Below are positions 10,502-32,000 of a stretch of 32,000 nt of DNA, piece by piece; the stretch's first letter is position 1; each line of letters opens with the position of its first letter. Source of the stretch: Ktedonobacterales bacterium (GTDB taxonomy: Bacteria > Chloroflexota > Ktedonobacteria > Ktedonobacterales > JADMIN01); NCBI GenBank assembly GCA_030167145.1, contig CP126532.1, positions 2,640,001 through 2,672,000 on the forward strand, given 5' to 3'. The position numbers and the translations under genes are program-made. The notes below the pieces were generated by a model, which saw only the letters and a program-made list of their open reading frames with translations, was not told the DNA's origin and ran no database searches.

Positions 10502-11599
10502 ATGCGCCCTGGCGTCTCACACGCCACCGCGTTCCTCTGCCGCGCGCTGTTGCTGCTGGTACTAAGCGCGCTTGCCGCGTGCGCCGGGCCGCCCGAAGTC
10601 GTCGAGCCGCTCCCCGCCACGCCAACGGGTTCGCCCACCACCGCGACCCCTGGCGGTACGCCTGGCGGCACGCCCGGTGGCACGCCTGGTGGTACGCCTG
10701 GTGGCGTCGCTTCACCGACCCCCACGCCCAAGCCATTGTCCCCCTTGTTGGTCTATGGCACCAACATGGCGCTGTATGATACCGGCGATCAGATCGCCAA
10801 CAAACCAGCCACCCAGCAAACGCTCAAGCAGCATGGCATTCCAATCATGCGCGTGCCCTCGCGCTTCACGCTTGCCGATGCCGACATGGTGCGGGCGCTG
10901 CAAGCCGTCAAGACTATCGGTGCGCTGCCGCTCTTCATCGTTCATGGCCCCACAGACAGCAACGCGCTCGCCGACGACAAACATCTGATCTCACTGGCGC
11001 AGGGTGTCTTTGGCGCCAGCACCGTCTATATCGAATACGGCAATGAATCGGACCTCGCGGGCATCAACGCGACGGACTATACCGCAAGCTGGAACGCGGT
11101 CGTTCCTCAGCTCAAGGCGATGGCCCCGACCTATAAGTTCATCGGGCCGGTCACATTTCAGTCCGATCCCACCTATATCTCCACCTTCGATAAGAATGCC
11201 AATCCCCGTCCAGACTTCAATAGCTGGCATGAATACGCCTGCCACCCCGGCGACTCCGATGCCCACTGCACCGCGCAGCTCGCCACCTGGACCGAGCACA
11301 TCCAGCAGACCAACGACGCCGTGCGCGCCGCCATCGGCACGACCATTCCGATCATGATTACTGAGTGGAATCTCGACGCCGAGCCAGACGCGCGCTACCA
11401 CAACGCCGCGTATATTCGCCAGTGGACCACCGACGCGCTGCATACCCTCGCCAGCAACGTACCCCACGGGCTGGCCGCCGCCATGCAATATGTCGCCACC
11501 AATAACCCGAATTTCAGCCTGCTCGACGGCGCGAATCAGCCGACGCTCCAGGGCGCGGCGTTCTTCCAGGCGCTGGCCATTGCCAAGGGCGACCCGTAA
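10502..11599 (+). CDS. Secreted lipoprotein, clan GH-A (TIM-barrel) glycoside hydrolase-like
   Basis: Signal peptide plus lipobox LSALAAC. (TPGG)x5 linker. Candidate acid/base YIEYGNESD and nucleophile IMITEWNLD, the NE...E(W) pattern of GH5/GH39-like enzymes. Confidence 0.8.
   Translation: MRPGVSHATAFLCRALLLLVLSALAACAGPPEVVEPLPATPTGSPTTATPGGTPGGTPGGTPGGTPGGVASPTPTPKPLSPLLVYGTNMALYDTGDQIANKPATQQTLKQHGIPIMRVPSRFTLADADMVRALQAVKTIGALPLFIVHGPTDSNALADDKHLISLAQGVFGASTVYIEYGNESDLAGINATDYTASWNAVVPQLKAMAPTYKFIGPVTFQSDPTYISTFDKNANPRPDFNSWHEYACHPGDSDAHCTAQLATWTEHIQQTNDAVRAAIGTTIPIMITEWNLDAEPDARYHNAAYIRQWTTDALHTLASNVPHGLAAAMQYVATNNPNFSLLDGANQPTLQGAAFFQALAIAKGDP
10646..10705 (+). repeat. 5 x 12-bp in-frame tandem repeat encoding (T-P-G-G)5 linker
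   Basis: acccctggcggt/acgcctggcggc/acgcccggtggc/acgcctggtggt/acgcctggtggc read directly. Confidence 0.9.
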
Positions 11600-13287
11600 G
11601 GCACGTCGGCCTGCGGATACAACGCCTGTAGGCCCGACGACGGGCGCTCGCCGAACGCCCCTACAGATGGAGTGAAGGGCACGAAGCCGTTTGGGCCTGC
11701 GGGCGCGGGTGGCGGGCCGCCGCCCTGATCGCCGCTAGGCGCGGCTCCCGCGACCACGTGTTTGCGCCAGATCATCGTGTACGCTGCCCCATACACATTC
11801 TGGACAAACACTTTCGCTGCCAGATCATACTGCTTGCCACTGAGCAGTTCTGGCTGGAGCGCAAAGTCCAGCGGGGCGGCGACACCGTAGCTCATCTCGA
11901 TCACATCGAAGAACCCATCGGCGACGGCGGCTTTATAGGCATCCACCCCCGCGAAATATTGCCCCTGCTTACTGGTGTACTCGAACCAGAACGGGCCAAC
12001 CCACTGCCAGTCCTCGGTCACGTCCCGCAAGTAGTAGCGTGCGACCTCCATATCCTCGGCCAGATAGTGCCCACCCGTCGGACGCACCAGCGAGCGCATC
12101 ACCTGCACCATACCGCTGCTATCGCTCCAGGTGTGAAACATCCAGTGGCCCTGTTGCGCGCCCAGCAGAAAGACGATCAGGCACAGCGCCAGCGCCGCCA
12201 GCCAGCTACGGCTCGCCACCACCAGCGTGCGCCCCGCGCCAGCCAGCCGTGTGACGGCATAGCCCGCCAGCGGCGCCGCGAAGAACATCGCGTAGGCGAT
12301 GTGTTTATCCAGCGAGACTGGCTCAGCTTTGTAGAGGTGATAGGCCGGCGCGAGCAGCGCCGAACCAAAGAGGATCAGCGCGATCATGCGCCGCTTGCGC
12401 CCCGCGAAGAGCAGCCCCAGAAAGCCCAGCGTCAGGCCGATGCCACCCAGCGCCACTACCTCCCAGATCAGGCCGGGCCGGGGCGCGGGCTGGGTGATGG
12501 CGCGGCTGGTGGTGCTGCCCGCCACCGCATGCAGAAAGCTGTGATCCAGTACCGCCAGCGCCAGCGCCGCGCTTGCGGCTATCGAGATCAGCGCCAGCAC
12601 CACACGCAGCAGCGCCTGGAACCATCCCCGCGCGCCGAGCGTCTGCCACGCCAGGATTGCCAGCGTCGAAGGCGCCCAGAGCATCGCCGCGTATTTGTTC
12701 AGCGTCGCCAGCACCAGCAGCGGACCCAGCGCCAGCGCCAGCAGCGGCGCACGCGCCGTGCTCGCACGGAACGCCACCACCACCGCCAGCGCCAGCAGCA
12801 TCAGGCACATGGCATCGTAGGTCGCCAGTCGCGCCAGAAACAGCACTGGCCCCTGGAAAGCGAAGATGGCGGCGGCGAAGATCGCGCTCTCACGGCTGAA
12901 GAGATGCCCTGCCACCCAATACACACAGATGGTGACGACGAGCATCGCCACCAGGCTCAGCACCCGCGCCGCCTCCACGCCGCCCCAAGCGTCGAAGATG
13001 CCCGCCAGCAGCGGATAGAAGTAGGGATTGCCCGACATGTACGAGGCAAATGGGTCTATCTCGGGCACACCAGTGCGGATCGAAGTCATCAACTGCCGCC
13101 CGGCATAGAGATACAACGCCTCATCCTGGAAGGCGGTATTGCGCAGCGTCAGCACCGCGACACCCGCTTGCAGCGTCAGGATACAGGCGAGCGGCAGATA
13201 CGACCACCGCGCGAGCGCGCGCGCCCATGCGCTGGCGCGGGTTGTCTGCGGCGCAGTCTGCGCCCGGCCTCTCAGGGTGACGCTCAT
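11536..13287 (-). CDS. GT-C fold membrane glycosyltransferase #1 (GT39/GT83, ArnT/PMT_2-like)
   Basis: 583 aa, more than 10 hydrophobic helices. First-loop acidic motif NTAFQDEALYLYAGRQL. Soluble C-terminal domain. GGAGGAAGG RBS before the ATG at 13287. The last ~60 codons overlap the convergent GH gene and REP-like elements. Confidence 0.8.
   Translation of the reverse strand: MSVTLRGRAQTAPQTTRASAWARALARWSYLPLACILTLQAGVAVLTLRNTAFQDEALYLYAGRQLMTSIRTGVPEIDPFASYMSGNPYFYPLLAGIFDAWGGVEAARVLSLVAMLVVTICVYWVAGHLFSRESAIFAAAIFAFQGPVLFLARLATYDAMCLMLLALAVVVAFRASTARAPLLALALGPLLVLATLNKYAAMLWAPSTLAILAWQTLGARGWFQALLRVVLALISIAASAALALAVLDHSFLHAVAGSTTSRAITQPAPRPGLIWEVVALGGIGLTLGFLGLLFAGRKRRMIALILFGSALLAPAYHLYKAEPVSLDKHIAYAMFFAAPLAGYAVTRLAGAGRTLVVASRSWLAALALCLIVFLLGAQQGHWMFHTWSDSSGMVQVMRSLVRPTGGHYLAEDMEVARYYLRDVTEDWQWVGPFWFEYTSKQGQYFAGVDAYKAAVADGFFDVIEMSYGVAAPLDFALQPELLSGKQYDLAAKVFVQNVYGAAYTMIWRKHVVAGAAPSGDQGGGPPPAPAGPNGFVPFTPSVGAFGERPSSGLQALYPQADVPYGSPLAMASAWKNAAPWSVG
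11625..11666. repeat. Composite REP-like element (cctgtag-gcccg-acga-cgggc + gggcgctc-gcc-gaacgccc-ctacag)
   Basis: Flanked by the inverted CCTGTAGG / CCCTACAG ends. The second half has the same 8-3-8 + CTAC architecture as 3809-3832. Confidence 0.6.
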
Positions 13288-13311
13288 CGCCTTCCTCCTA
13301 TCAAGTACGAG

Positions 13312-13344
13312 TTATCCACAGGGTTATCCACAAGATTATCCACA
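13312..13344. promoter_or_regulatory. Three perfect DnaA-box consensus nonamers (TTATCCACA) in a 12-bp tandem array
   Basis: TTATCCACA at 13312-13320, 13324-13332 and 13336-13344. The array lies 25-57 nt upstream of the GT-C #1 start codon (13287, minus strand) and overlaps the TAA stop (13336-13338) of the upstream synthase gene. Confidence 0.9.
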
Positions 13345-16300
13345 GGTTGACGCTTTCCCCGGCGGCAACAGCGCACGCCAGTCCGCTACTGCCTGCCGCG
13401 AGAGCGGGTCGGATTCCAGCGACCATTGCAGATCGTCCGCTTGCGTCGCATGCACATCCGGCGCGCCCTCGTGGTAGAGCAGCGCGTACACATGCGCGTC
13501 CGCTTTTGCCGCGCTCTCGGTCTGCTCCAGCCACGCCGCTTTATCCTGCGGATCGCCCGACGCGCTGACCTCCAGGAAGATCGGCTTGCCGGGATGTCGC
13601 GCCTCCACGGCGCTTAGCACGGCGCTGGGATCGGGCCAGGGGGTATTGGGGTAGCGGATCATGCTCTGCAACACCACATCAATCGTCGTGTCCGGCGGCG
13701 CATATTGTTGATCGTGCGCCGGGTCGGCGGGCGACCAGACCCATGCGACATTGGTCGCGCCCGCCGCCGCGAAGACCGCCTGCACATGCTCCCAGGCGCG
13801 CGGCACATCCTGCGGAATGCCGCCATTAGCCACAGCGGAAGAGAGCGCCCAGTTGCGGTCCACGTGCAGCAGAATTGTCAGGTAGATCGGCTTGCCATAC
13901 ACCGCAATTTCGCGCGCCCAGCGTTGCAGCGCGGTATCGTCCACGCCGTTGGCGATGGCAGGCAGCCCAGCGGAGAGCGGCGGCTCTCCATCCGCGCCGA
14001 ACTCGCCGAATTGCAGCGTAACCCACGGGCGCTGCTGATGTGCGGCAAGCTGGTTGGCCCAGGCGATGTCGAACGAATCGGTAAGGTCTTGCGTGCGCCC
14101 GATGATTGTGAACGGCAGGCAAAGCTGCTGCGCGAGTTGCGTGGGGCGCGTCTTCAGCCACTCGACCCGCACCGATAGCCCCAGGTACGGCGCGCCGTGG
14201 TACGCGGCGGGCACGAAGCGCGCGGGTGGCTGCGCATCCACCAGCCGCGACGTGATGAAAGCGCCCGTACACAGCACCAGCAGCCCACTCAGCAGCGCTC
14301 CTCGCGCCCTCGTCGCGGCCCATCCCCATGCCGAGTACACTCCCTGCGTCGCGACGCGCTGCGGCGCACGCGCCACATGAATCGCGACGCGGTGCGCAGC
14401 CGCCCACGCCTGCATGCGCGCCCACACGCTCTGGCGCTGCCGCGCTTCGCCGTAGCGCAGGTCGCGCACGCCCAGCCACAAGACGCTGCCCAACAGGCCG
14501 ATGTCGTAGATCACCCACAACACACTAACAATCACCGAATCGCGGTGCGCGTGTGGCACGACGAACGCCACAACGATGCCGGCAAAGCAGGCGACAACAG
14601 CCACCAGATAGACGACGAGATGGCTCCATGCGCTCGTCGTGCGCCGCTGCTTGGATGTGACCATGAAGCCCGTGCGCCCACCAGTGATGACCGTCCACAA
14701 CGCCTGAATCAACACCGGAAAGCTGCCGAAGCCGATGATGATGCCGCGAATGCCGGTCTCGCGGCGACTGGCGTACCAGAACGCCCCCTGCGCGGCGATC
14801 CAGTATGGCACAAAGTGCCACAGGAAGAGCGCCAGCGTCGCACCGCGCACCGCCGGAATGCCGGTAAACAGGAAGGCCAGCGGCGCTACCAGGTAGATCA
14901 GGTCGCGCACGCCGCAGAGATAGTGCGTGCAGGCCAGCGCATATTGCAGCCGCTGCCCCACATGCAGGCCGCCGCGCCGGGGCAGCCAGATCGCGCGCCA
15001 GTGTGTGCGCAGCACACCCAGCGTGCCAATTGCCCAGCGGCGCTGCTGCTTCAGGTATGCGGGCAGGTCCATCGGCCCCAGGCCCGTCGCCAGCACATCC
15101 GTCAGGAAGACACTGCGCCAGATGGGATGCAGCGCGATAGATGCGGCGAAATCTTCCGTCACCGAATCCTGTGGCAGCCCGCCAATCTCATCCAGCGCCG
15201 TCGCCCGCAACACCACATTCGTGCCGCAGATGAACGCGGCATTGAGCGCCGCCTTGCCGGGGCAGAGTATGCGATAGAACAACGCCTGCTGATCGTTGGC
15301 CCAATGCGCTACCGGCTGCTCCAGGTTAGTATAGTATTGCCCCGTCTGCACCCAGCCGATGGTGGGGTCCGCGAACGGCGGCACGGTCTTCAGCAGAAAG
15401 TCTGGCCGGGCGAGCTGGTCGGCGTCGAAGATCGCCACCAGCGCATCGCCGGTCGCGCCCACCTGCTGGCGCGCGTGCTCGATATTGCCCGCCTTCGCGC
15501 CGCCACCTGCCGTGCGAGTGACACATTGCACGCCCATCCGCTCCGCCAGGCTTTCCACTTCGCGCCAGCAGGGCGCGTTGGCGACGCGCCCATCATTGCA
15601 GAGCACGATGGCGACCTGCCCCTGCGGATACGCGCGCAGATAGCGGCGGCGCGCTTCCAGCGCCGCCTTGAGGGTCGGCGCGAGCACCCCAGCGCCTTCA
15701 TTCACCGTGGGAATGAAGATGAAGACCGGGCGGCGCGCGGGATCTTCGGAGGGGACGATGCGCGGCCTGGACCACGGCCAGACGGTATATTGCAGCCCCA
15801 GCGTATGCACCGCGCCAAACGCCTCGGCGGCGAGCAGCGGCACGGCAATCCACCAGGCTGCCCAGTTCGAGACTTCCAGCCGCCACGTCAGATAGTCAAT
15901 CGTCGTCACGCCCACCGTCGCGGCCAGCAGAATCGTCAGCAGCTTCCGGCTATCCGCTCCACCACGCAGCGCGATGCTCACCCCCAGCGCCAGCGTCGCC
16001 AGCATCACCCAGCCACCTGGTAGCAGCAGCACGATACAGGCAAGCGCGACGACGATCAACGCTGCTGAGATCAACGTCATCGCCTGCTCGCGGCGCTGCG
16101 GAAGCCCGCTCCGCTCATGCCGCTCATGCTGCTCATGCTGCTCGCGTTCCGCCTCCGCCTCCGTGACCACCTCGAAGTCGGCTCCGCTCTCCGGCATTGC
16201 CGTGCATGGCGCCGTCACCACGAAGTCACGCGCATTGGTTGCGCTCGCCTCTGGCGCGCCGTCCACATGCGCGCCGTTGGAGTGCTTGCCCTTGGCATGC

Positions 16301-16614
16301 TTGTTCTTGGCATGCTTGTTCTTGGCATGCGGTTGCGCCGCGTGGACGCCGTCCGCATGTGCGCCGTTGGGGTGTGGCTGCGCCTCCTGGGCGGGCAAGC
16401 GCGCGATAGCGAAGCGCGCGATGGTGAAGGGCGCGATGGTGAAGGGCGCGAGACGCGAGACGACAAACGCATTCTTCAAGCCTCCCGCCGCTGGGTGGCG
16501 CGCCGACGCGGTGGGCGCTGAAGAAATAAGTGATGAAGCAGCGGGCGGCGACCTCTGTGACGATGCCGCTTCTTCGCGCTCCGGTGGGTCAGCAACGGTA
16601 TTTTGATGCGTCAT
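13336..16614 (-). CDS. Processive GT2 glycan synthase (BcsA/PgaC-like, QxxRW) fused to a repeat-rich N-terminus and a C-terminal extracytoplasmic glycoside-hydrolase-like domain
   Basis: GT2 motifs VFIFIPTVNE, LCNDG, AKAGNIEHA, AIFDADQ, VTEDFAASIALH, LKQQRRWAIGT, flanked by multiple TM helices. The C-terminal ~300 aa (…RWAREIAVYGKPIYLTILLHVDRNW…NVAWVWSP…KPIFLEVSASG) reads like a GH26/GH5-type barrel. Start uncertain: 16614 (MTHQNT) or 16653. Confidence 0.85.
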   Translation of the reverse strand: MTHQNTVADPPEREEAASSQRSPPAASSLISSAPTASARHPAAGGLKNAFVVSRLAPFTIAPFTIARFAIARLPAQEAQPHPNGAHADGVHAAQPHAKNKHAKNKHAKGKHSNGAHVDGAPEASATNARDFVVTAPCTAMPESGADFEVVTEAEAEREQHEQHERHERSGLPQRREQAMTLISAALIVVALACIVLLLPGGWVMLATLALGVSIALRGGADSRKLLTILLAATVGVTTIDYLTWRLEVSNWAAWWIAVPLLAAEAFGAVHTLGLQYTVWPWSRPRIVPSEDPARRPVFIFIPTVNEGAGVLAPTLKAALEARRRYLRAYPQGQVAIVLCNDGRVANAPCWREVESLAERMGVQCVTRTAGGGAKAGNIEHARQQVGATGDALVAIFDADQLARPDFLLKTVPPFADPTIGWVQTGQYYTNLEQPVAHWANDQQALFYRILCPGKAALNAAFICGTNVVLRATALDEIGGLPQDSVTEDFAASIALHPIWRSVFLTDVLATGLGPMDLPAYLKQQRRWAIGTLGVLRTHWRAIWLPRRGGLHVGQRLQYALACTHYLCGVRDLIYLVAPLAFLFTGIPAVRGATLALFLWHFVPYWIAAQGAFWYASRRETGIRGIIIGFGSFPVLIQALWTVITGGRTGFMVTSKQRRTTSAWSHLVVYLVAVVACFAGIVVAFVVPHAHRDSVIVSVLWVIYDIGLLGSVLWLGVRDLRYGEARQRQSVWARMQAWAAAHRVAIHVARAPQRVATQGVYSAWGWAATRARGALLSGLLVLCTGAFITSRLVDAQPPARFVPAAYHGAPYLGLSVRVEWLKTRPTQLAQQLCLPFTIIGRTQDLTDSFDIAWANQLAAHQQRPWVTLQFGEFGADGEPPLSAGLPAIANGVDDTALQRWAREIAVYGKPIYLTILLHVDRNWALSSAVANGGIPQDVPRAWEHVQAVFAAAGATNVAWVWSPADPAHDQQYAPPDTTIDVVLQSMIRYPNTPWPDPSAVLSAVEARHPGKPIFLEVSASGDPQDKAAWLEQTESAAKADAHVYALLYHEGAPDVHATQADDLQWSLESDPLSRQAVADWRALLPPGKASTCG
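16112..16460. repeat. Cluster of short in-frame tandem repeats in the 5' part of the synthase gene (9-bp x3-4, 6-bp, 15-bp x2.7, 15-bp x4)
   Basis: ccgctcatg/ccgctcatg/ctgctcatg (EQHEQHERHE). cttggcatgcttgtt x2.7 at 16291-16330 (HAKNKHAKNKHAKGKH). gcgcgatggtgaagg-type units at 16401-16460 (FTIAPFTIARFAIARL). Confidence 0.85.
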
Positions 16615-16759
16615 GCGGATGCTAAGCCCCTGCCTACGCCAGAACGTAGGCAATCTGCGCGCGTCTTGCGCGCGTGTTCGTCTCTATGCTTCTGTGAGTG
16701 TGTACGTGCATCTTTGCGCCCCACACTGTATAGGCCCTGCGCCTCCGCACCCAAGTTCG

Positions 16760-16789
16760 TGGGTATCACCACGAACCTACTTCGGTATC
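16760..16789 (-). promoter_or_regulatory. Bipartite GATACC element, copy A (minus-sense GATACCGAAGTA-N9-TGATACCCA)
   Basis: Plus-strand tgggtatcaccacgaacctacttcggtatc. It matches the box halves and N9 spacing of 22941-22970 exactly. On the gene strand it is followed by TTGGGT-N16-TATACA (16754-16727). It lies 146-175 nt upstream of the synthase ATG at 16614. Confidence 0.6.
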
Positions 16790-16875
16790 GCTCCGCTAGA
16801 GCGCGAGCGCAGCGCATCGCCTTCCCGCGCGCCATCCCATGCCCCGCTGCCTCGCTTGCGCCACGCGATCCGCGA

Positions 16876-22848: not shown

Positions 22849-22940
22849 GGGTGTTCCATTCGTAGATGGCGGGCAGTGTCGGCGGCTTGCGTCCTTACTC
22901 ATGAATGGTATGCACTTCCGTTTCCAGCCCTCACACCCTC

Positions 22941-24695: not shown

Positions 24696-24735
24696 CACGC
24701 TGACGGCCATACCGACCCTCTGCGAGATCCCCCTG

Positions 24736-24766
24736 TGATACCCAAGGCACATCATCGTGATACCCT
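24736..24766 (+). promoter_or_regulatory. GATACCC direct repeat, copy C (TGATACCCA-N13-TGATACCCT; 22-bp phasing)
   Basis: tgatacccaaggcacatcatcgtgataccct read directly. It sits immediately upstream of the -35-like hexamer of the GT2/radical SAM operon. Confidence 0.6.
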
Positions 24767-24773
24767 CCGTGCC

Positions 24774-24801
24774 TTGTGAGTGACGCGCGCATCTTCATAA
24801 T
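24774..24801 (+). promoter_or_regulatory. Putative sigma-70-like promoter (TTGTGA-N16-CATAAT) of the small ORF/GT2/radical SAM operon
   Basis: -35-like TTGTGA at 24774-24779, 16-nt spacer, -10-like CATAAT at 24796-24801. It is about 90 nt upstream of the ATG at 24890. Confidence 0.4.
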
Positions 24802-24889
24802 TGGTCGTATACCCGCGACAAGACATCAAGCACCCGACGTGGCATGCCGGGCAACGGCAATGGACTACGGTCGCTGGGGAGAGACACCT

Positions 24890-25210
24890 ATGAGCACGTC
24901 GTCAACTGGAGGGCCGCCTGCAAGCGCCGCCACCCAGCCCGTCCCCGAACGGGACATCGCCTTCCAACTGCTGCTGTTGCAGCAGAAGCTCGGCGCGCTG
25001 GACCGGCTCTACAACGAAGAAGTTGGGGCGCTGCATCACGACCTGACACAGCTCAAGGCTGAGTATGTGCGCCAGGTGCAGGCACAGCGAGAAGGAGCGC
25101 CCTCCAAGCCATCGCGCCAGGAGAAGAAAACGGCGAAAGGCTCGCGCCGCAAGTCTTCGCCAGGCGAGACGGGTAAGCCGTCGCCGCGCAACGCGGGAGC
25201 AGCCTCCTGA
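24890..25210 (+). CDS. Small coiled-coil protein with basic, Ser/Pro/Lys-rich tail (unknown function)
   Basis: GGGGAGAGA RBS. 106 aa. Heptad-like DIAFQLLLLQQKLGALDRLYNEEVGALHHDLTQLKAEYVRQVQAQ. Its stop lies 13 nt before the next gene. Confidence 0.5.
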   Translation: MSTSSTGGPPASAATQPVPERDIAFQLLLLQQKLGALDRLYNEEVGALHHDLTQLKAEYVRQVQAQREGAPSKPSRQEKKTAKGSRRKSSPGETGKPSPRNAGAAS

Positions 25211-25223
25211 GAGGAATGCAGAC

Positions 25224-26570
25224 ATGGCAAAGGAAAGCGGTTTCGCGCAAGGTACGCCAATTGCGCCGGGGATCTCGTGCAGCGCGGGCGTCATGGCGTA
25301 CAACGAGGCAGGCAACATCGCCAGCGCCATCGCCAGTATCCTCAACCAACCACTGGAAACCGGCTGCATCGCCGAGGTGATCGTCGTCGCCAGCGGCTGC
25401 ACCGACGACACCGTGCCCATCGTGCGCGGCATCTGCCAGCGCGACCCACGGGTGCGGCTGATCGTGCAGGAGCGCCGCGAGGGCAAGGCGTCGGCCATCA
25501 ACCTGTTCCTCAGCGCCGCCACCGCGCCAATCCTGCTGATGGTCAGTGCCGATGTCATCATCAAGGATGGCTCGCTCGACGCGCTGCTGCGCCCCTTCGG
25601 CGATCCGCGCATCGGCATGGTGGGCGCGCATCCCATCCCGGTCAACGACGAGCAGCGGTTCCTTGGCCACGCGGTACACCTGCTATGGAGCCTGCACGAC
25701 CGCATCGCCCGCCAGTCACCCAAGCTGGGCGAGGTGGTCGCCTTCCGCAATGTCGTGCCGAGCATCCCGCCCGATACACCGGTGGATGAGATCTCGATCC
25801 AGGCGCTGGTCGTGCAGTTGGGCTATGAGTTGCTCTACGAGCCGCGCGCCATTGTCTACAATCGCGGCCCCGAAACCATCGGCGACTTCCTGCGCCAGCG
25901 CCGCCGCATCTACAGCGGCCACCTGCGCATCCAGCGCCAGCAACAGTATTCCGCCGCGACGATGAGCGTGCCGCGCATCACCCGCGCCCTACTGGCCGAG
26001 CATCCCTTCGCCACGCCGCGCGCCGCCTGCTGGACCTGCGGCACAGTTGGCCTGGAAGCGCTGGCGCGTGCGCTGGGCAGCTACGACCAGATGCGCCGCC
26101 GTCAACATCAGGTGTGGCAGATGGCCGGCACCACCAAAGCGCGAATCGCCGAAGCCGCCACCGCGCACAGCCTCGAAAGCGTGCTGGTCTTCCATATCGC
26201 GGGCTTCCACCAGCACGAGCTAGAGCTGGGCAGCCGCAACGCGCGGCGTCTACTTGAGGCCGTGACCGAGCGGCTGCGCCAGGAGTTGCGCGCCTACAAC
26301 GGCAATGTCGCCGCCGAGCGCAATGGCACGATCATCGCCCAACTTCCGGTAGATCGCGCCGAGGCGGAACGGCTGGCGCAGCAGGTAATCCCGGCGGTGG
26401 CACGCGCGCCGCTGCGGATCGCGGGCAGCCGCGAGACCGCGCCGGTGCGGTTGGCCTGCGGCATCATCGAATTCGCGCGTGAAGGCGGAGGTAGTAGTGC
26501 GTTCGCCACCTCCGTGCCGGAGTCGGCATGGAGCGCTCAAGAGCAGAGTCCAGCGGTGGAGGCAGTTTAG
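25224..26570 (+). CDS. Soluble GT2 glycosyltransferase fused to a C-terminal degenerate GGDEF-like (nucleotidyl-cyclase fold) domain
   Basis: GAGAGGA RBS. GT2 N-terminus GVMAYNEAGNIASAIASILNQ, VVASGCTDDT, LLMVSADV, FLRQRRRIYSGH. C-terminal SVLVFHIAGFHQHELELGSRNARRLLEAVTERLRQELRAYNGNVAAERNGTIIAQLPVDRAEAERLAQQV follows the GGDEF-domain spacing pattern but lacks GG(D/E)EF. Confidence 0.8.
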   Translation: MAKESGFAQGTPIAPGISCSAGVMAYNEAGNIASAIASILNQPLETGCIAEVIVVASGCTDDTVPIVRGICQRDPRVRLIVQERREGKASAINLFLSAATAPILLMVSADVIIKDGSLDALLRPFGDPRIGMVGAHPIPVNDEQRFLGHAVHLLWSLHDRIARQSPKLGEVVAFRNVVPSIPPDTPVDEISIQALVVQLGYELLYEPRAIVYNRGPETIGDFLRQRRRIYSGHLRIQRQQQYSAATMSVPRITRALLAEHPFATPRAACWTCGTVGLEALARALGSYDQMRRRQHQVWQMAGTTKARIAEAATAHSLESVLVFHIAGFHQHELELGSRNARRLLEAVTERLRQELRAYNGNVAAERNGTIIAQLPVDRAEAERLAQQVIPAVARAPLRIAGSRETAPVRLACGIIEFAREGGGSSAFATSVPESAWSAQEQSPAVEAV

Positions 26571-26584
26571 GAGGCAGTGTAACT

Positions 26585-27742
26585 ATGGGTATGCGAAAAG
26601 TGCTTACACGGATTCCTGTGCTTCAGGCGTCCTATCTCACCGGGCATCCGATGGGGTTGCCCGTCAACATCACCATCAGCACGAGCTACCGCTGTAACTC
26701 GCGCTGCAAGACCTGCAACGTCTGGCTCTTGCCTAATGACGACTTCACCCTGGAAGAGTGGGATCGCACCTTCCAATCGCTGGGCAAAGCGCCGTACTGG
26801 TTCACCTTCAGTGGCGGCGAGCCGACCCTGCGCAAAGACCTGCCGGAGATGGTGGAGAGCGCCTATCGTCACTGCAAGCCAGGCATCATCAACATCCCCA
26901 CCAACGGCATTCAGGATAAGATCATCCCTGGGCGCGTCGAGCGCGTGCTGCAAGCCTGCCCAGAGAGCGAGGTCATCATCAACGTCTCGCTAGATGGCGT
27001 GGGCCTGAAGCATGATACCGTGCGCGGCGTGCGCGGCAACTTCGAGCGGGCGATGCGCACCTACGCCGCGCTCAAAGACCTGAAGACGAAGTACCAGAAC
27101 TTCACCCTGGGCGTCCACTCGGTCATTTCCAACTTCACTGTAGATAGCTTCCCCGAACTCTGCGAATTCGTGCAGACGGAACTGAAGCCCGACCAGTACA
27201 TCACCGAGATTGCCGAGGAGCGCGTCGAGTTGGATACCGTCGGCCTGGGCATCACGCCGCCGGTCGAGAAATACAGCGTCGCCATCAATACACTCGTAGA
27301 GAGTCTCCACGACCAGAAGCTGACCGGCATCTCCGCTGTGACACAGGCGTTCCGGTTGCAATACTACGAGATCGTCAAGAAGACGCTCCGCGAGCATCGC
27401 CAGGTGATTCCGTGCATGGCGGGCGTCGCCTCGGCGCAGATCGCCCCCAACGGCGACGTGTGGACCTGCTGCATCCGCGCGCAATCTATGGGCAACCTGC
27501 GCGAGTATGGCTACGACTTTGGCAAGGTCTGGCGCACGGCGCGGGCCGACGAGCTACGCCACAGCATCAAGGCGGGCGAATGCTATTGCCCGCTGGCGAA
27601 CGCTTCGTACACCAACATGCTGATGCACCCGCCCACGCTGGCGAAAGTCTCCGCGACGGTGCTGCGCGAGCGACGACAAGCCGCCAAGGCAGGCCAGGGC
27701 GCGCCGCAGCCCGCGCTGCCCATCCCCGCCGCCGAGGCTTAG
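26585..27742 (+). CDS. Radical SAM enzyme with C-terminal SPASM/twitch-like Cys cluster
   Basis: AGGAGG RBS overlapping the upstream stop. CxxxCxxC = STSYRCNSRCKTCNV. SAM-binding FTFSGGEPTL. C-terminal cysteines PCMAG...WTCCIRAQ...GECYCPLAN. Confidence 0.9.
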   Translation: MGMRKVLTRIPVLQASYLTGHPMGLPVNITISTSYRCNSRCKTCNVWLLPNDDFTLEEWDRTFQSLGKAPYWFTFSGGEPTLRKDLPEMVESAYRHCKPGIINIPTNGIQDKIIPGRVERVLQACPESEVIINVSLDGVGLKHDTVRGVRGNFERAMRTYAALKDLKTKYQNFTLGVHSVISNFTVDSFPELCEFVQTELKPDQYITEIAEERVELDTVGLGITPPVEKYSVAINTLVESLHDQKLTGISAVTQAFRLQYYEIVKKTLREHRQVIPCMAGVASAQIAPNGDVWTCCIRAQSMGNLREYGYDFGKVWRTARADELRHSIKAGECYCPLANASYTNMLMHPPTLAKVSATVLRERRQAAKAGQGAPQPALPIPAAEA

Positions 27743-27770
27743 CAGCAACGCCCTGCTTCCCCAACCACAA

Positions 27771-27812
27771 CCCCTCCTCTGCTGCTGCGGCGGGGGAGGG
27801 GCTATTTCTTTG
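27771..27812 (+). terminator. Putative intrinsic terminator of the GT2/radical SAM operon
   Basis: Stem CCCCTCCTC (27771-27779) / GGGGAGGGG (27793-27801), 9 bp with one G-U pair, followed by ctatttctttg. Confidence 0.65.
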
Positions 27813-28034
27813 CGCGAGGAAAAGGTGGGAGCGAGGGGGGTGGACGCGGCATGAATGCCCATAGTCATCGTGACCCCTCAGTACGTATCATGGATGCGTT
27901 CTGCCAATGGCGGGCTACGCTAATAGCCTGTTTAATAGTAGAATGGTTGGCAGTGTCCGCTGCCAGTCACGCTCTCAGGTAGACGGGCGACGCGAACGGG
28001 CAGATCTGGATGAGTTGCCAGAAAGGCTAGGAGC

Positions 28035-29216
28035 ATGAGCGCACAGTCACCTTCCCCTTCCAACTATGGAATGCAGCGACAGCTTGAGGTCTACATGGCG
28101 GGGCTGGCGGGACAACATCCGGTGCTACCGGTGGACTCGGCGGCACTGGAGCATGCCGCCAACGCGGCGATGACTCCTGAGGCGAGCGGCTACCTGGACG
28201 GCATGGCCGATAGCATGCGTGCCAATCTCGCAGCGTTCCGGCGCTGGCGTATCGTCCCGCGGATGCTGCGCAACGTTGCCGAGCGCGACCTGGGCGTTGA
28301 GTTGTTTGGCAAGCGCTACGCGACGCCTCTGCTGTTGGCGCCGATCGGTGTACAGTCTATCGTGCATGCCGAGGGTGAACTGGCGCCAGCGCGCGTCGCG
28401 GCTTCGCTCGGCATCCCTATGATCTTCAGCAGCGCCTCTACCGCCCCGCTGGAACAAGTCGCGGAGGCAATGGGATCTGCGCCTCGCTGGTTCCAACTCT
28501 ATTGGAGCAAGGACCCCGAATTCAACGCCAGCATCGTGGCACGGGCCGAGCGCGCCGGTTGCGAGGCGATTGTCGTCACGCTAGACACCTTTCTGCTGGC
28601 ATGGCGCCCGCTCGACATCCAGAACGCCTATTTGCCGTTCCTCTTGGGTCAGGGCGTCGGCAACTATTTCAGTGATCCCGCCTTCCGCAAGTCGCTCAGC
28701 AAGACGCCGGAGGAAGATCCACAGAGCGCGATCATGCGTTTCATCCAGATCTTCACTAATCCCTCGCTCACGTGGGCTGATCTCGCCACATTGCGCGATC
28801 AAACAAAACTGCCGATTCTGCTCAAGGGCATCTTGCATCCTGACGACGCGCACAAGGCGCTGGAAGCCGGAATAGACGGCGTCATTGTCTCGAATCACGG
28901 GGGACGGCAGGTGGAGGGAGCCATCGCTGCGCTGGATGCCCTTCCAGCGGTTGTCGAGGCAGTGGCTGGGCGCATGCCGGTGCTCTTTGACAGCGGCATC
29001 CGGCGCGCGTCCGACGTGCTGAAAGCGGTGGCGCTGGGGGCGCGAGCGGTGCTGCTGGGGCGACCGTACATGTGGGGGCTGGCGCTCGGCGGGGAGCAGG
29101 GCGTGCGCGAGGTGTTGCGAAACCTGTTGGCGGACCTCGATCTCACGCTGGCCCTCAGTGGCTATACTTCTTTCGCGGACCTGAATCCGTCGTCGCTGGT
29201 GCGCGAGCCGGTGTAG
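28035..29216 (+). CDS. FMN-dependent alpha-hydroxy-acid oxidising enzyme (lactate 2-monooxygenase / L-lactate oxidase family)
   Basis: 393 aa. TPLLLAPIG, WFQLYW, VVTLDT, ILLKGI, IVSNHGGRQ, VLFDSGIRR and GRPYMWGLA motifs typical of the glycolate oxidase/LldD family. Confidence 0.9.
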   Translation: MSAQSPSPSNYGMQRQLEVYMAGLAGQHPVLPVDSAALEHAANAAMTPEASGYLDGMADSMRANLAAFRRWRIVPRMLRNVAERDLGVELFGKRYATPLLLAPIGVQSIVHAEGELAPARVAASLGIPMIFSSASTAPLEQVAEAMGSAPRWFQLYWSKDPEFNASIVARAERAGCEAIVVTLDTFLLAWRPLDIQNAYLPFLLGQGVGNYFSDPAFRKSLSKTPEEDPQSAIMRFIQIFTNPSLTWADLATLRDQTKLPILLKGILHPDDAHKALEAGIDGVIVSNHGGRQVEGAIAALDALPAVVEAVAGRMPVLFDSGIRRASDVLKAVALGARAVLLGRPYMWGLALGGEQGVREVLRNLLADLDLTLALSGYTSFADLNPSSLVREPV

Positions 29217-29247
29217 GGCATCATCCCCGAATCGAATCAGGTCAGTA

Positions 29248-30693
29248 TCACGTGCGGCGCTGCCAGCTCGCGAAGCGCAGCGCCATTCCCACCGCCATCA
29301 CCGCGAGTCCCGCGCCAATGCCGACCCACGTCCACAGATACGTGGCTGGCGGCGCATCGCTTGGCGCTGGCGGCGCTGGCGATGCCGAGGCGATAGGCGA
29401 GGGATTCGCTGGCGTAGCGCGTGAGACGGGCGCAGGCGCCGTGGCCGCAACGCTGGGCGGCGCGGCAGGCATGGTGCGCGGCGTGTCGGCAGGCGCTTGC
29501 GCTTGGAGTTGCGGCGCATCGCTGGGCGTAGAGGTAGAAGATGCGGGCGCATCGGCGGGCGGCGCGCTCATGCTCATCTTCAGTGTCGAACGCAGGTTCA
29601 GGCCCATCGCGCTCAGGCAGAGCAGGCCAGAGCAGGTCATCAGCAGCGCCGTCCACGGGTGCGAGAAGAGGAACATCGCCGCCACCCCCGGCGCGCTCAC
29701 CCCGAAGAGTCCGGAAAATATCAGCAGCCCGATCACCTCATTGCTGCCGATCTGCCCTGGCGGCGTGGGCAGGATGTACCCCAGGTTATAGAGCGTGTAA
29801 CCGAAGAGCGCCACCGGGAAGACCACCCCCACCCCCACCGCCTGGAACGCCAGGAAGGCGAAGAGCGCATCCAGCGCCACCGCCACCGCCGTATACCCCG
29901 CCGCGACGATCAGCCGTCGTGGATTCGCCAGCAGCGCCAGCAGCACCTCGATGAAGCGCATCATGAACGGCTCAACCACATTCCGCATGCGCGCGGGCAG
30001 ACGATCCAGCGGGATACGCAGCAATGCGAACGCCCGCTCGCGCCGCCACGCCGCCAGCCCCAGAAAGGTGAAGCCGATACACAGCACCACCAGCACCGAC
30101 AGCAGCAAGAACCACAGCGGTCCACTCAGCCGGAACGGCAAGAACGGCAGGATAATCACCAGCACCACCGCTGGCAGCAGATCCATCATCTTATCCGCAG
30201 CCACCGTGGGCAGCGAATCGCTCATCGGGATCTCGTCCAGCCGCTTGAGCAGCAGCCCCTTGACGATCTCGCCGCCCCGCAGCGGCAACAGCCAGTTCAC
30301 GAACGTAGCGACCTGATAGATCAGAATCACCTGCACCACGCCCACCGGATGCGGCTTCAAGAAGACACGCCAGCGCAGCGCCCGCACCACATACGCCGCC
30401 AGGAAGACCACGCCGCAGAGCAGCGCCAGCGGAATGTTGAGATGTTCGAGATGCACGAACGCGCCCCGCAGGCTCACCACCCGGCTGAACGTAGCGACCA
30501 GCACCACCGCCGCGAACGCGCCAATGATAATGCGGATCACCTGGCCGTTCAGTCGCCGCGACCGCTTCTTTCTCGCCGTGATAACCCCATCCGGCGCGGA
30601 AAGCGCCTGTAGGGGCGCACGGCGGGCGCACGTCCGGGCGCACGCGCCATCTGCAGGCGTGTATGCGGTCTGCCCACCCATCTCCTGATCCAT
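29248..30693 (-). CDS. Flippase-like polytopic membrane protein (MprF/LPG_synthase_TM, UPF0104 family) with long Pro/Ala-rich C-terminal extension and terminal TM helix
   Basis: ATG 30693 preceded by GGAGGG. YVVRALRWRVFLKP...YQVATFVNWLLPLRGGEIVKGLLLKR signature. About 8 TM helices. C-terminal ~130 aa are low complexity (PADAPASSTSTPSDAPQLQAQAPADTP...) ending in WTWVGIGAGLAVMAVGMALRFASWQRRT. Confidence 0.75.
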   Translation of the reverse strand: MDQEMGGQTAYTPADGACARTCARRAPLQALSAPDGVITARKKRSRRLNGQVIRIIIGAFAAVVLVATFSRVVSLRGAFVHLEHLNIPLALLCGVVFLAAYVVRALRWRVFLKPHPVGVVQVILIYQVATFVNWLLPLRGGEIVKGLLLKRLDEIPMSDSLPTVAADKMMDLLPAVVLVIILPFLPFRLSGPLWFLLLSVLVVLCIGFTFLGLAAWRRERAFALLRIPLDRLPARMRNVVEPFMMRFIEVLLALLANPRRLIVAAGYTAVAVALDALFAFLAFQAVGVGVVFPVALFGYTLYNLGYILPTPPGQIGSNEVIGLLIFSGLFGVSAPGVAAMFLFSHPWTALLMTCSGLLCLSAMGLNLRSTLKMSMSAPPADAPASSTSTPSDAPQLQAQAPADTPRTMPAAPPSVAATAPAPVSRATPANPSPIASASPAPPAPSDAPPATYLWTWVGIGAGLAVMAVGMALRFASWQRRT

Positions 30694-30727
30694 GTGCTGG
30701 TATCCCTCCTGGTATCCTTCCACGCTG

Positions 30728-31297
30728 CTATGCCGCCGCGATGCCGAGCGCGCCATGCGCGCCGGGTGCGATGATGCCGCCCTCCTGAGCATGCGCCTGT
30801 TCGTGGCAGACGCCGCAGAGGCTGATAAAGTGCTCCACGCGATACGACGGCAGCAGCGGCGGCTGCCGCCACAAATGCGCCACCACCGTGCGGTCGCGTG
30901 CGCCGCAGCGCTGACACGTGTAGGCGTCGCGTGCTAGCGCTGCCTTGCGTGCGGCGCGCGTGCGGTGCGTATGGAAGGCATCCAGCGCCACATGGAACGC
31001 GAAGCCCAGCAGGGTCAGCCGCGCCCAGCGCCAGCGCAACCCCAGCAGGCCCAGCGCCGCCAGGGCTTCAGGACTATGCAGGCAGCGGATGCCGTCGTGC
31101 TGCGGTGGCATCGCCTGCGCGAAGAAGCGCACCGCGCCACGTGGGCTAAGCTGGCGCTGCTTTACGCAGTACCAGGCGTAGTGGTCAACATCTATCAGCA
31201 GGCTCGCCGCCCACGGTGCCAGCGCCGCGCGCCCCATGCGGGGGGCCAGCAGCGTCGCCGTCGCGCTCGAAAGCAGCAGATGATCGCGGATTCTCAC
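30728..31297 (-). CDS. Membrane-associated DUF457/YdjM-like N-terminus fused to an HNH-type zinc-finger nuclease motif
   Basis: GTG 31297 preceded by GAAGGAGG at 7-nt spacing. LLIDVDHYAWY. C-terminal CQRCGARD...VAHL...HFISLCGVCHEQAH (CxxC...H...CxxCH...H). Confidence 0.6.
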   Translation of the reverse strand: MRIRDHLLLSSATATLLAPRMGRAALAPWAASLLIDVDHYAWYCVKQRQLSPRGAVRFFAQAMPPQHDGIRCLHSPEALAALGLLGLRWRWARLTLLGFAFHVALDAFHTHRTRAARKAALARDAYTCQRCGARDRTVVAHLWRQPPLLPSYRVEHFISLCGVCHEQAHAQEGGIIAPGAHGALGIAAA

Positions 31298-31309
31298 CCC
31301 GGCGCCTCC

Positions 31310-31360
31310 TTCGCGCACTCAACTTCGCGCACTCAACTTCGCGCACTCAACTTCGCGCGA
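31310..31360. repeat. 3.6 copies of a 14-bp tandem repeat (ttcgcgcactcaac)
   Basis: Copies at 31310-31323, 31324-31337 and 31338-31351, then a partial ttcgcgcga. The array spans the epimerase stop codon (31347-31349) and abuts the RBS of the HNH gene. Confidence 0.9.
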
Positions 31361-32000
31361 GCGCCTGTGGCGCTTCGCTCACTCGCGCGGGCGGCAGATA
31401 CCCCTCCGCGCGATACCAGTCCGCCGCGCGCCCGATGCCCACAGCCAGCGGCGTATCGGCGCTGAAGTCGAGCCGCTCGCGCGCTTTGGCCACGCTATAC
31501 ACACGGCTATGCGTCAGAAAATCGAGCCGGCTGCTGGTCAGCGGCGCGGACTGGCGCAGCCGCGCGGGCAGCGCATCGCAGGCCGTCGCCACGGCGCGTG
31601 CGGCGGGCAGCGGAATGTGGCCGCGCGGTGGCGGCACATCCAGCGCACCAGCGATAGTCGCGGCCAGCGTGTCAATGGTCACCGGCTCACGTCCCGCGAT
31701 GTGAAAGCACTCGCCCACGGCGCGCGGATCGCTGCCGCACCGCACGAACGCCTCGATCATGTCGTCCACATAGATTGGGTGGAACCACACCGTCTCGCGC
31801 CCAATCGGGCGGAACAGCCGCCGCTGGATCGCCTTGAAGAAGCCCAGCAGGTGCAGATCCCCCGGCCCGTAGACCAGCCCCGGCCGTACAATCACCGCCG
31901 GAAAGCCGTTCCAGGCCTCCTCGCGCACCAGCACTTCCGCGTCGCGCTTGGTCGCCTCGTAGGCGTTGGTCGGCGCGTAGGGCGCGACTTCCGCCGCTGG
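31347..32000 (-). CDS. NAD-dependent epimerase/dehydratase (extended SDR), C-terminal part; 5' end lies outside the window
   Basis: The frame is open to the window edge. Translating 31935-32000 by hand gives ...PTNAYEATKRDAE (YxxxK catalytic motif), then VIVRPGLVYGPGD and FHIAG. Confidence 0.85.
   Translation of the reverse strand, partial: PAAEVAPYAPTNAYEATKRDAEVLVREEAWNGFPAVIVRPGLVYGPGDLHLLGFFKAIQRRLFRPIGRETVWFHPIYVDDMIEAFVRCGSDPRAVGECFHIAGREPVTIDTLAATIAGALDVPPPRGHIPLPAARAVATACDALPARLRQSAPLTSSRLDFLTHSRVYSVAKARERLDFSADTPLAVGIGRAADWYRAEGYLPPARVSEAPQALARS

Follow-up and report, generated by a model that had tools for sequence, protein, structure and literature searches.

Synthase-dependent polysaccharides, such as cellulose, poly-N-acetylglucosamine (PNAG), alginate, Pel, and hyaluronan, are, to our knowledge, modified after polymerization only by small groups or by epimerization. 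Known side-chain systems that use GT-C glycosyltransferases act on the products of Wzx/Wzy or ABC-transporter pathways. A conserved, translationally coupled pair of a synthase and a GT-C enzyme would join the two fields, and it predicts branched polymers made without a lipid-linked repeat unit. Here, we describe a gene cluster with a candidate pair of this kind in the metagenome-derived genome of a soil Ktedonobacterales bacterium (assembly GCA_030167145.1, locus tags OJF49_, contig CP126532.1, positions 2,640,001 to 2,672,000). The whole stretch of 32,000 nucleotides (nt), with a GC content of 61-71%, is referred to as the window, and the cluster at window positions 10502-32000 as the glycan island. 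Its genes are lettered A to O; RR, HK, and Zn are genes of the left flank, and X is a DUF362 + 2x[4Fe-4S] gene of relatives (Table 1). The island brings together known parts in a combination that has no earlier description as one system, recurs in Ktedonobacteria and Dormibacterota, and probably builds one or two decorated secreted polymers. In the reading developed here, which we give about an even chance, it is a modular envelope/exopolysaccharide system that combines synthase-dependent glycan production with three-component-type glycosylation outside the membrane.

The closest described mechanism is that of the three-component systems for extracytoplasmic glycosylation, in which a polyprenyl-phosphate-sugar synthase works with a flippase and a GT-C. 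They include GtrA/B/C, ArnC/E-F/T, mycobacterial decaprenylphosphoryl-arabinose (DPA) with Emb/Aft, and the Citrobacter GT136 pentofuranose system (PMC11127046). Versions with auxiliary epimerases that act on the lipid-linked donor are established (PMC11127046). The island resembles these systems in that its GT-Cs carry an acidic motif after the first transmembrane (TM) helix, a candidate flippase is encoded, and polyprenyl-phosphate-sugar synthase domains occur in relatives. Its short-chain dehydrogenase/reductase (SDR) and other redox enzymes could tailor the lipid-linked donor, as DprE1/E2 or ORF13 do. Unlike in the three-component systems, the acceptors in the island would come from synthase-type family 2 glycosyltransferases (GT2s), whereas Wzx/Wzy and ABC-transporter pathways are discussed for the described systems (PMC11127046). 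The flippase candidate is a UPF0104 protein and not GtrA, SMR, or MATE, and the charging GT2 is not in the window. Further additions in the island are a radical S-adenosylmethionine (SAM)/SPASM enzyme, DUF362/Fer4, and a synthase-like GT2 that is soluble and carries a dead GGDEF domain.

A flippase role in glycosylation has been predicted for UPF0104 proteins, which in archaea were noted beside an AglD-like GT2 and a PMT/STT3-like GT-C (PMC5898192). A UPF0104 protein is also encoded in the glycolipid operon gpgSDF, for which C. difficile hexSDF has been named as an analogue (PMC12713373). As in these neighborhoods (MprF flippase domain, AglD C-terminal domain, GpgF, HexF; PMC5898192, PMC12713373, bioRxiv 10.1101/2022.03.11.483950), the UPF0104 protein of the island, M, sits with glycosyltransferases. 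However, M is not fused to a synthase domain, no deacetylase accompanies it, its operon partners are N and the SDR, and its partners in the island include synthase-type GT2s, the radical SAM enzyme, and DUF362/Fer4. For J, the best structural match is PcManGT (PDB 6yv7), a membrane mannosyltransferase from a crenarchaeon whose fold is like that of cellulose synthase in minimal form; this enzyme also ranks among the top matches of E. Unlike PcManGT, J lacks TM helices and has a GGDEF-like domain, and the sequence identity is only 18-22%.

Cellulose synthase offers another comparison. C aligns with BcsA over the glycosyltransferase and channel-forming TM regions, retains the D, DxD, TED, and QxxRW motifs, and is encoded together with a hydrolase. 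It differs from the BcsA/B/Z(/C) systems by lacking PilZ, by not being an equivalog, and by having a GT-C as its invariant partner. No coding sequence (CDS) of the window matched PilZ, BcsB, BcsC, or GH8, and there is no GlxA in the window. CslA-GlxA-CslZ is an actinobacterial hyphal-tip glycan system, and the host of the island is likewise mycelial and actinomycete-like. The hydrolases differ, with GH26-like (fused to the synthase) and GH39/GH44-like domains in the island versus GH8 or GH6 in Bcs and CslA-GlxA-CslZ. An earlier sequence-only reading of this DNA held that the combination fits no named system. This held up, as our literature searches found none; searches for a synthase + GT-C system, for DUF362 with glycosyltransferases, and for cell-wall glycans of Ktedonobacteria returned nothing specific. 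The same reading saw no Wzx/Wzy, Wza, ABC exporter, or WbaP/WecA-type priming enzyme, and Pfam and NCBIfam searches of all window CDSs, with the left flank scanned too, gave no match to these families.

Two production units of like composition can be recognized, G-F-E-D and C-B with the convergent gene A, and each would comprise a synthase-type GT2, its own GT-C, and a hydrolase. C and E, membrane-embedded GT2s of the TED/QxxRW type, would polymerize and extrude a beta-glycan. The adjacent GT-C (B with C, D with E, and H as an extra) would add sugars to the emerging polymer from a lipid-phosphate-linked donor, and A, G, the GH26-like domain of C, and F would trim, release, or hold it. A supply set (Zn, I-J-K, O-N-M, and X), which travels with either synthase pair, would make, tailor, and flip the lipid-linked donor. 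Within this set, J is likely to act at the surface of the membrane. Redox or radical modification of the sugar would fall to K, the SDR(s), and DUF362/Fer4, and flipping of the lipid-linked sugar to M, which resembles the MprF flippase. A hydrolase gene is usual in the operons of synthase-dependent systems, and the position of G upstream of E and of an A homologue after C-B in one relative (L087) fits this habit. What the analysis shows directly are domain identities, motifs, fold similarities, gene order, co-localization statistics, and domain fusions; from this comparative genomics we infer the biochemical steps, the identity of the polymer, which sugar is donated, and what is flipped and in which direction.

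A narrower proposal, which we consider less likely than not, is that E-D and C-B are obligate one-to-one co-synthase pairs. The GT-C would then either glycosylate the backbone leaving the synthase or complete the translocation path, using a lipid-linked sugar that is tailored by the radical SAM enzyme, SDRs, and DUF362/ferredoxin and flipped by the UPF0104 protein. If true, the pathway would be without precedent among synthase-dependent bacterial polysaccharides in having glycosyl branching built in, and the J-K-DUF362 set would gain its first assigned role. The system as a whole would give a testable role to several widespread families that so far lack one, namely stand-alone UPF0104 proteins, DUF362/Fer4 proteins, K-type radical SAM enzymes, and soluble GT2s with a dead GGDEF domain. 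It also bears on Ktedonobacteria and Dormibacterota as groups whose cell envelope has hardly been studied and which are represented mainly by soil metagenomes and few isolates.

Gene neighborhoods were compared from three independent anchors (E, J, and C). An alignment scan with E, using one genome per species, gave 80 loci with flanks of up to 10 kb on each side. D is directly downstream of E in 70 of 71 testable loci, and G is upstream of E in 54 of 71. Among the testable loci, X (35 of 59), O (36 of 59), and M (28 of 57) occur downstream of E-D on the same strand. C, B, and A occur in none of the 80 E-anchored loci, and J-K is within +/-10 kb of E in three of them. From the E anchor alone, C-B-A and I-J-K-L would pass for unrelated insertions. 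This view was overturned by the contexts of J and C and by domain fusions, and only L stays out.

With J as the anchor, K is always the next gene (L070, L082-L085, L088, and L089), and the small open reading frame (ORF) before J is an I-like gene or a Zn-ribbon homologue. In L083 and L085, J-K has O, N, and M as neighbors, joined by X in L083. In L082 (Dormibacteraeota), J-K is beside several SDRs, N, and a PMT_2 gene, and in the metagenome-assembled genome (MAG) of L006, it lies on the contig of E, about 13 kb from E and just past the +/-10 kb flanks. L089 has J-K alone, with no other module within 10 kb. The C anchor adds two informative arrangements. In a relative at 66% identity, C-B-A adjoins G-F-E-D in a changed order. 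In L087 (Candidatus Nephthysia, Dormibacterota), a contiguous co-directional array of ten genes, [GT2-J]-N-C-B-A-X-O-SDR-M-K, contains homologues of nine window genes with 36-69% identity to the window proteins. Among culturable relatives, Ktedonobacter racemifer and Dictyobacter spp. carry E-D and/or C-B. Synteny across related genomes had been proposed as a check on the island, and overlapping gene sets in differing orders were recovered from E, J, and C in Ktedonobacteria (Chloroflexota) and Candidatus Dormibacterota. The modules thus shuffle but repeatedly co-localize in two phyla, which supports a functional link among the genes, L excepted.

Domain fusions in relatives connect the modules at the level of single proteins. 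In P0293, a PpgS/AglJ/ArnC-type GT2 and a GtrA_DPMS_TM domain are fused ahead of the CelA-like core, and in P0335 a GtrA_DPMS_TM domain is fused to this core. Both proteins (1079-1335 aa) have the GH26-like domain at the C-terminus. An 837-aa protein of L087 consists of an ArnC/AglJ/PgfS-type GT2 fused to J, an AglJ/PpgS-type GT2 is encoded beside Zn-J-K in L082, and a 1371-aa protein of L085 (20285-21395) joins a GT2 to PMT_2. Judged by domain composition, the fusions link the synthases, J, and the GT-Cs to the chemistry of sugars bound to lipid phosphates. The sequence-only reading had proposed that a lipid-linked sugar, a flippase, and outward-facing GT-Cs act on a synthase-made polymer. 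The fusions back this scheme, except that J does not qualify as the charging enzyme. In the multi-step fusions (the GT2 + PMT_2 protein of L085, P0293, and P0335), one polypeptide carries several steps, which makes these proteins good experimental targets.

Several points weigh against synthase-dependent production with lipid-linked decoration. We know of no synthase-dependent polymer that is glycosylated by a GT-C, and all functional claims made here rest on association. That association is loose in many genomes, since J-K is rare near E and O, M, and X are present in about half to 60% of the E loci. E has only four TM helices and is as near to PcManGT, which is not a channel, as to BcsA; thus, it may not export a polymer alone. 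The GH26-like domain of C lacks the canonical acid/base Glu and therefore may not hydrolyze. A gene of the polyprenyl-phosphate-sugar synthase type (GtrB/DPMS/ArnC/PpgS) was found neither among the window CDSs nor in the scanned left flank, and the intergenic gaps and left flank hold no hidden GtrA/DPMS gene. The charging GT2, which is fused or adjacent in relatives (PpgS/AglJ/ArnC-type), must therefore be encoded elsewhere. Finally, the substrates named for the family of M in the UPF0104 papers cited above are phospholipids and glycolipids, not polyprenyl-phosphate-sugars. For the earlier suggestion that the UPF0104 protein flips the lipid-linked sugar, M is a candidate: it is a UPF0104/TIGR00374 member and is co-conserved, but its family is not among the established donor flippases (GtrA, SMR, and MATE).

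A glycolipid or lipoglycan pathway is an unlikely explanation that nevertheless keeps a real chance. J, K, the SDR(s), DUF362/Fer4, and M would synthesize the headgroup of a membrane glycolipid, modify it, and move it across the membrane, on the model of gpgSDF, hexSDF, or the hopanoid genes hpnA/I/J/L; the GT-Cs would extend that lipid outside into a lipoglycan; and E and C would make a separate polymer or use lipid-linked acceptors like PcManGT. M belongs to the MprF/GpgF family, for which those papers name only membrane lipids as substrates, and the models of J and E are as near to the lipid-linked-glycan enzyme PcManGT as to polymer synthases. J also has no TM helix but long amphipathic-looking helices after QRRRI. 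In its kinds of parts (SDR, GT2, radical SAM enzyme, UPF0104 membrane protein), the island mirrors the hopanoid side-chain genes hpnA, hpnB, hpnI, hpnJ, and hpnL, and there are weak HpnA, HpnI, and HpnB matches. Those scores are far under the cutoffs, however, HpnL is unmatched, and a deacetylase such as that of gpgSDF/hexSDF is missing. The fusions in relatives involve a polyprenyl-phosphate-type GT2 and GtrA/DPMS, not diacylglycerol or phospholipid enzymes, and C matches BcsA across the channel-forming TM region.

The acceptor could also be protein. The GT-Cs would then be Pmt-type O-glycosyltransferases whose acceptors are not polymers but Thr/Pro-rich linkers in proteins that are secreted or anchored, A, F, and G among them, a reading that we consider improbable. 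D scores above the PMT (PF02366) gathering score, and suitable linkers exist: (GGTP)n / TPTPKP in A, TDTSDTPDTPDT in G, and long Thr/Pro/Ala-rich segments in F and M. Such Thr/Pro-rich linkers are typical Pmt substrates in actinobacteria. However, D and B are tied to synthase genes, not to hydrolase genes, D by its position in 70 of 71 loci and the ATGA overlap and B by following C in all four C contexts. Matches to the solved Pmt1/2 (E<0.01) or ArnT structures were not obtained at the sequence level, no NCBIfam Pmt-type model scored above its cutoff, and DPMS/GtrA modules are fused to the synthase itself. The window has no Ppm1-type gene. It is also quite unlikely that the modules are independent and merely clustered, with two unrelated exopolysaccharide synthases, unrelated GT-Cs, and an unrelated J-K-SDR pathway for a small molecule or sugar nucleotide gathered by rearrangement. 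Gene order does differ in each lineage, C, B, and A are absent from 80 of 80 E loci and J and K from at least 77, J-K stands alone in L089 (10 kb), and the unrelated gene L lies inside the island. Against this stand the overlapping sets from three anchors in two phyla, the ten-gene co-directional array of L087, the fusions between modules, and the position of J-K about 13 kb from E in the MAG of L006.

Table 1. Features of the glycan island and its left flank (window positions; scores in bits are followed by the gathering score or cutoff where available).
Feature	Position	Strand	Assignment	Basis
RR	7875-8612	+	LuxR-type response regulator, probable regulator of the system	Response_reg + GerE
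HK	8599-9993	+	GAF-domain histidine kinase	HATPase_c, HisKA, GAF; 14-nt overlap with RR
Zn	10104-10448	+	Small Zn-ribbon protein	Weak zinc-ribbon matches; co-conserved
A	10502-11599	+	Lipoprotein, Thr/Pro-rich linker + clan GH-A (GH39-like) hydrolase domain	Lipobox LSALAAC, family profile
B	11536-13287	-	GT-C (PMT_2) glycosyltransferase paired with C	PMT_2 40.3 bits vs 26.1
C	13336-16479	-	BcsA-like processive GT2 without PilZ + TM helix + extracytoplasmic GH26-like domain	Structure matches, motifs
D	16876-18690	-	GT-C (PMT/PMT_2) glycosyltransferase	PMT_2 51.6 bits vs 26.1; PMT (PF02366) 38.1 vs 22.7
E	18687-19967	-	Membrane synthase-type GT2, 426 aa	Glyco_tranf_2_3 132.7 bits; DAED, TED, QRTRW
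F	20129-21199	-	Single-pass membrane protein, acidic N-terminus, outward carbohydrate-binding-module-like (Mann_GBD_bact) domain	26.9 bits vs cutoff 27, borderline
G	21247-22848	-	Membrane-anchored clan GH-A hydrolase (GH44/GH39-like)	GH44 29.7 bits vs 25.1
H	23118-24695	+	Third GT-C (PMT_2), divergent from G	PMT_2 49.4 bits vs 26.1
I	24890-25210	+	Small predicted coiled-coil protein	Upstream of J, 13-nt gap
J	25224-26570	+	Soluble synthase-like GT2 + degenerate GGDEF-like C-terminal domain	Pfam; SAD, VDE, QRRRI; no TM helix
K	26585-27742	+	Radical SAM/SPASM enzyme	Radical_SAM + SPASM; CxxxCxxC motif
Hairpin	27771-27801	+	Terminator-like, end of the H-I-J-K unit	14-bp stem, 10 G-C pairs, T-rich tail, 29 nt after K stop
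L	28095-29216	+	Flavin mononucleotide (FMN)-dependent 2-hydroxyacid dehydrogenase/oxidase	FMN_dh 1.4e-123
M	29248-30693	-	UPF0104 / LPG_synthase_TM flippase-like membrane protein	PF03706 114.6 bits, TIGR00374 72.7-72.9 bits, both above cutoff
N	30728-31318	-	Uncharacterized protein, weak YdjM-like N-terminus, Cys-rich C-terminus	No significant family match
O	31347-32000, cut by window edge	-	C-terminal part of extended SDR (epimerase/dehydratase/reductase type)	Weak Epimerase + 3Beta_HSD matches on fragment

ORFs were selected with guidance from the GC content at third codon positions (GC3), and the selection agrees with the gene models of the identical Logan contig L001. This gives 15 CDSs in the island. 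The sequence-only reading had counted 16, of which 14 were called carbohydrate-related; 12 are glycan-related by direct homology, I and N are tied to the system through co-conservation only, and L is unlinked. Almost all of the earlier domain assignments were reproduced or supported by a more sensitive test (Pfam/NCBIfam scores, family profiles, or motifs). Its borders of the island were off: the Zn-ribbon gene is a member of the set, as the RR/HK pair (7875-9993) probably is too, and the DUF362/Fer4 gene must lie past base 32000. The system reaches left to about 7.9 kb and past the right edge of the window. Spacing within the gene groups is short, with gaps of 47 nt (G-F), 48 nt (C-B), 13 nt (I-J), 14 nt (J-K), 28 nt (O-N), and 34 nt (N-M).

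C and E are both of the TED/QxxRW synthase type, in agreement with the two processive GT2 synthases proposed earlier. The start of C is uncertain and is either 16479 or an alternative as far up as 16653. Solved BcsA/cellulose synthase structures match residues 119-690 of C, covering the catalytic and TM regions, at 1e-39 to 1e-37, and the motifs are DAD, TED, and QQRRW. C scores 238.7 bits against CelA (equivalog cutoff 699.1) and 178.8 against PRK11498 (cutoff 992). For the C-terminal domain (13336-14256), the GH26 lichenase CtLic26A is the sole match (5e-5 for the single sequence, 2e-9 for the family profile). Its nucleophile Glu (LEVS) is invariant, and at the acid/base position an equally invariant HVDRNW replaces the HExNGxW of GH26 enzymes. 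The domain may therefore hydrolyze in a non-canonical way, act as a transglycosylase, or serve for binding. Its exclusive match to a lichenase-type GH26, together with the resemblance of C to BcsA, weakly hints at a beta-glucan backbone. The family of BcsA-like + GH26 fusions to which C belongs comprises at least 484 proteins.

The DNA of C has two further peculiarities. Its N-terminal region (16100-16460) contains in-frame short tandem repeats with periods of 9 and 15, which encode low-complexity HAKNKHAKNKHAKGKH, FTIAPFTIARFAIARL, and EQHEQHERHER before the first TM helix. In the C-B spacer (13311-13346), the last codons of C and its stop (TGT GGA TAA) occur three times in tandem, followed by AGGAGG and the ATG of B. 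The + strand of this spacer reads as three perfect TTATCCACA 9-mers at 12-bp spacing; this 9-mer is the DnaA-box consensus. With one mismatch allowed, the window has six matches to TTATCCACA, against a mean of 1.87 in shuffled sequences, and 0 of 100 shuffles reached six. The triple repeat is shared with the identical contig L001 but absent from all relatives checked.

B has about ten TM helices and FQDEALY just past the first of them. Its homologues follow those of C in L086 (45% identity) and L087 (42% identity), both with PMT_2. On the P0249 contig, the gene in the position of B encodes 566 aa without a Pfam match; the GT-C position after C is filled in all four C contexts. A gave no Pfam match even at E<=1. 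Its family profile matches structures of GH39, GH44, and GH79, of which GH39 is the best (1.7e-7), and the NE, HxY, and TEWN residues are invariant in the family alignment. The A homologue that follows C-B in L087 is 51% identical. A (+) and B (-) converge, and their 3' ends share 64 nt (window 11536-11599).

E has one N-terminal and three C-terminal TM helices. In Foldseek searches with its AlphaFold2 model (predicted template-modeling score [pTM] 0.82), the TM-score was 0.60-0.67 on the query for BcsA, 0.73 on the target for PcManGT, and 0.64 for hyaluronan synthase (HAS); DPMS, GtrB, and ArnC were not among the top 50 matches. The start of D overlaps the stop of E in ATGA, and D carries QGDEGVY after its first TM helix. 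In G, NEP and ITEVN motifs are present, and the TM helix is at residues 127-145 of the 595-aa ORF translation. F has its TM helix at residues 167-185, and an F-like protein of a relative matches Mann_GBD_bact at E at most 1e-5. F is present in the six closest relatives of the window locus, and its position between G and E is confined to closest relatives (L002-L007 and the P0249 contig). H carries WLDEAFS after its first TM helix. In L002 and L004-L007, it again points away from G; in L003, it is found downstream of D; and in L088, it shares the strand of J-K. The three GT-C transferases named by the sequence-only reading were confirmed, with B, D, and H all above the PMT_2 gathering score; each has 9-12 hydrophobic segments and an Asp-Glu (D-E) pair directly past the first TM helix. 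That reading also called them paralogues. No pairwise BLASTP similarity is detectable, and two are each tied to one synthase. By these comparisons, B, D, and H are not interchangeable recent paralogues.

J was previously taken for the enzyme that charges a polyprenyl-phosphate sugar, of the DPMS/GtrB/ArnC type. This assignment is contradicted by the absence of any NCBIfam match of J to ArnC, PpgS, AglJ, or DPMS, by the lack of a TM helix, and by a fold nearest to PcManGT, HAS, and BcsA. The AlphaFold2 model of J (predicted local distance difference test [pLDDT] 78.8) shows a GT-A core, three long helices after the invariant QRRRI, and a beta-alpha-alpha-beta-beta-alpha-beta arrangement at residues 318-417. 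Foldseek placed PcManGT first (3.7e-14), then HAS and BcsA, with ArnC at rank 21. J is therefore placed among the synthase-type GT2s, from which it differs by the loss of the TM helices, and not with the DPMS/GtrB/ArnC type. The GGDEF match of the window J is only 18 bits, while 20 of 31 family members match PF00990, the best at 5e-9. In the family alignment, the position of the GGDEF motif is R-x-G-T-I, and no conserved RxxD precedes it. By homology, the C-terminal domain of J is a true but degenerate GGDEF domain; sensing of cyclic di-GMP is unsupported, as both the GGDEF motif and a conserved RxxD are missing.

I has no family match, and its homologues lie upstream of J in L005, L083, and L084 (67% identity over 39 aa). 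The nearest solved relative of K is BlsE, a sugar-modifying radical SAM enzyme (9e-7, over the generic core only). Between Ktedonobacteria and Dormibacterota (L082-L085, L087), K is 69-81% identical, compared with 45-66% for J, 36-58% for N, and 44-61% for M, which reflects either unusually strong constraint or recent transfer of K. Zn homologues are directly upstream of J-K in L082 (58% identity) and L085 (48% identity). In L002 and L004-L006, Zn lies between HK and the SDR group, and in L006, where this was checked, it is upstream of the DUF362/Fer4 gene. In the four closest relatives that extend far enough (L002, L004-L006), RR-HK-Zn separates D from the DUF362-SDR-N-M group, and RR is 52-54% and HK 26-28% identical. 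The association is limited to these closest relatives, and the RR/HK pair is probably part of the system.

M is beside J-K in L083 and L085 and within the same array as C-B in L087. N homologues with 36-59% identity occur in L002, L003, L005, L006, L082, L083, L085, and L087. N lies between O and M in the window and in L002, L005, L006, L083, and L085; in L003, L082, and L087, it has another place in the cluster. The full-length O orthologue of L006 matches Epimerase at 3.5e-42. X immediately precedes the SDR in relatives (L020:13347-14510, L006:16521-17711, L083, and L087), so its window counterpart should lie just past base 32000. X is weakly similar to the Npun_F2552 family, and no literature on the function of this DUF362/Fer4 protein was found. 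The O-N spacer (31309-31358) consists of a perfect 14-nt tandem repeat, GTGCGCGAAGTTGA (- strand), in 3.6 copies; each copy includes the stop of O, and AGGAGG and the GTG with which N starts come next. The pattern is as in the C-B spacer, where the gene end and stop are triplicated.

L is similar to L-lactate oxidase/LldD and scores under all equivalog cutoffs. Two observations exclude L from the system: the hairpin after K separates it from H-I-J-K, and it shows no co-conservation with the island. A RibD_C gene takes its place in L083. With a promoter-like site at 27862-27891, after the hairpin, L is its own transcription unit and is probably unrelated to the island.

Other named pathways were considered and rejected. 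For PNAG synthesis (PgaABCD/IcaADBC), E and J score 69.5 and 65.3 bits against PgaC (cutoff 422.3), and the window has no polysaccharide deacetylase. Mycofactocin biosynthesis also combines a GT2, a radical SAM/SPASM enzyme, and an FMN dehydrogenase, but the scores are 48.3 versus 280 for MftF, 46.6 versus 265 for MftC, and 239.4 versus 470.85 for MftD, and MftA/B-like ORFs are absent from the window. For the hopanoid hpn genes, HpnI scores 40.9 (E) and 15.9 (J) versus 310, HpnB 30.7 versus 379, and HpnA 35 versus 368 (partial O). HpnL, HpnJ, and HpnH are unmatched by window proteins, and no squalene-hopene cyclase context was seen. J-K-I as a glycosylated ribosomally synthesized and post-translationally modified peptide (RiPP) system was also set aside, as I lacks Cys and leader-like features and is kept only among close relatives.

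An Rfam scan of the window returned no riboswitch or other RNA regulator at gathering thresholds. Near the left end of the window, a STAND-type NTPase of 1209 aa (DUF4062 + NB-ARC + TPR; 64-3693, - strand) is divergent from a 565-aa pentapeptide-repeat protein (3834-5531, + strand). A BTAD/AAA/TPR regulator of a size like that of this NTPase lies just upstream of the lone J-K in L089, perhaps by coincidence.

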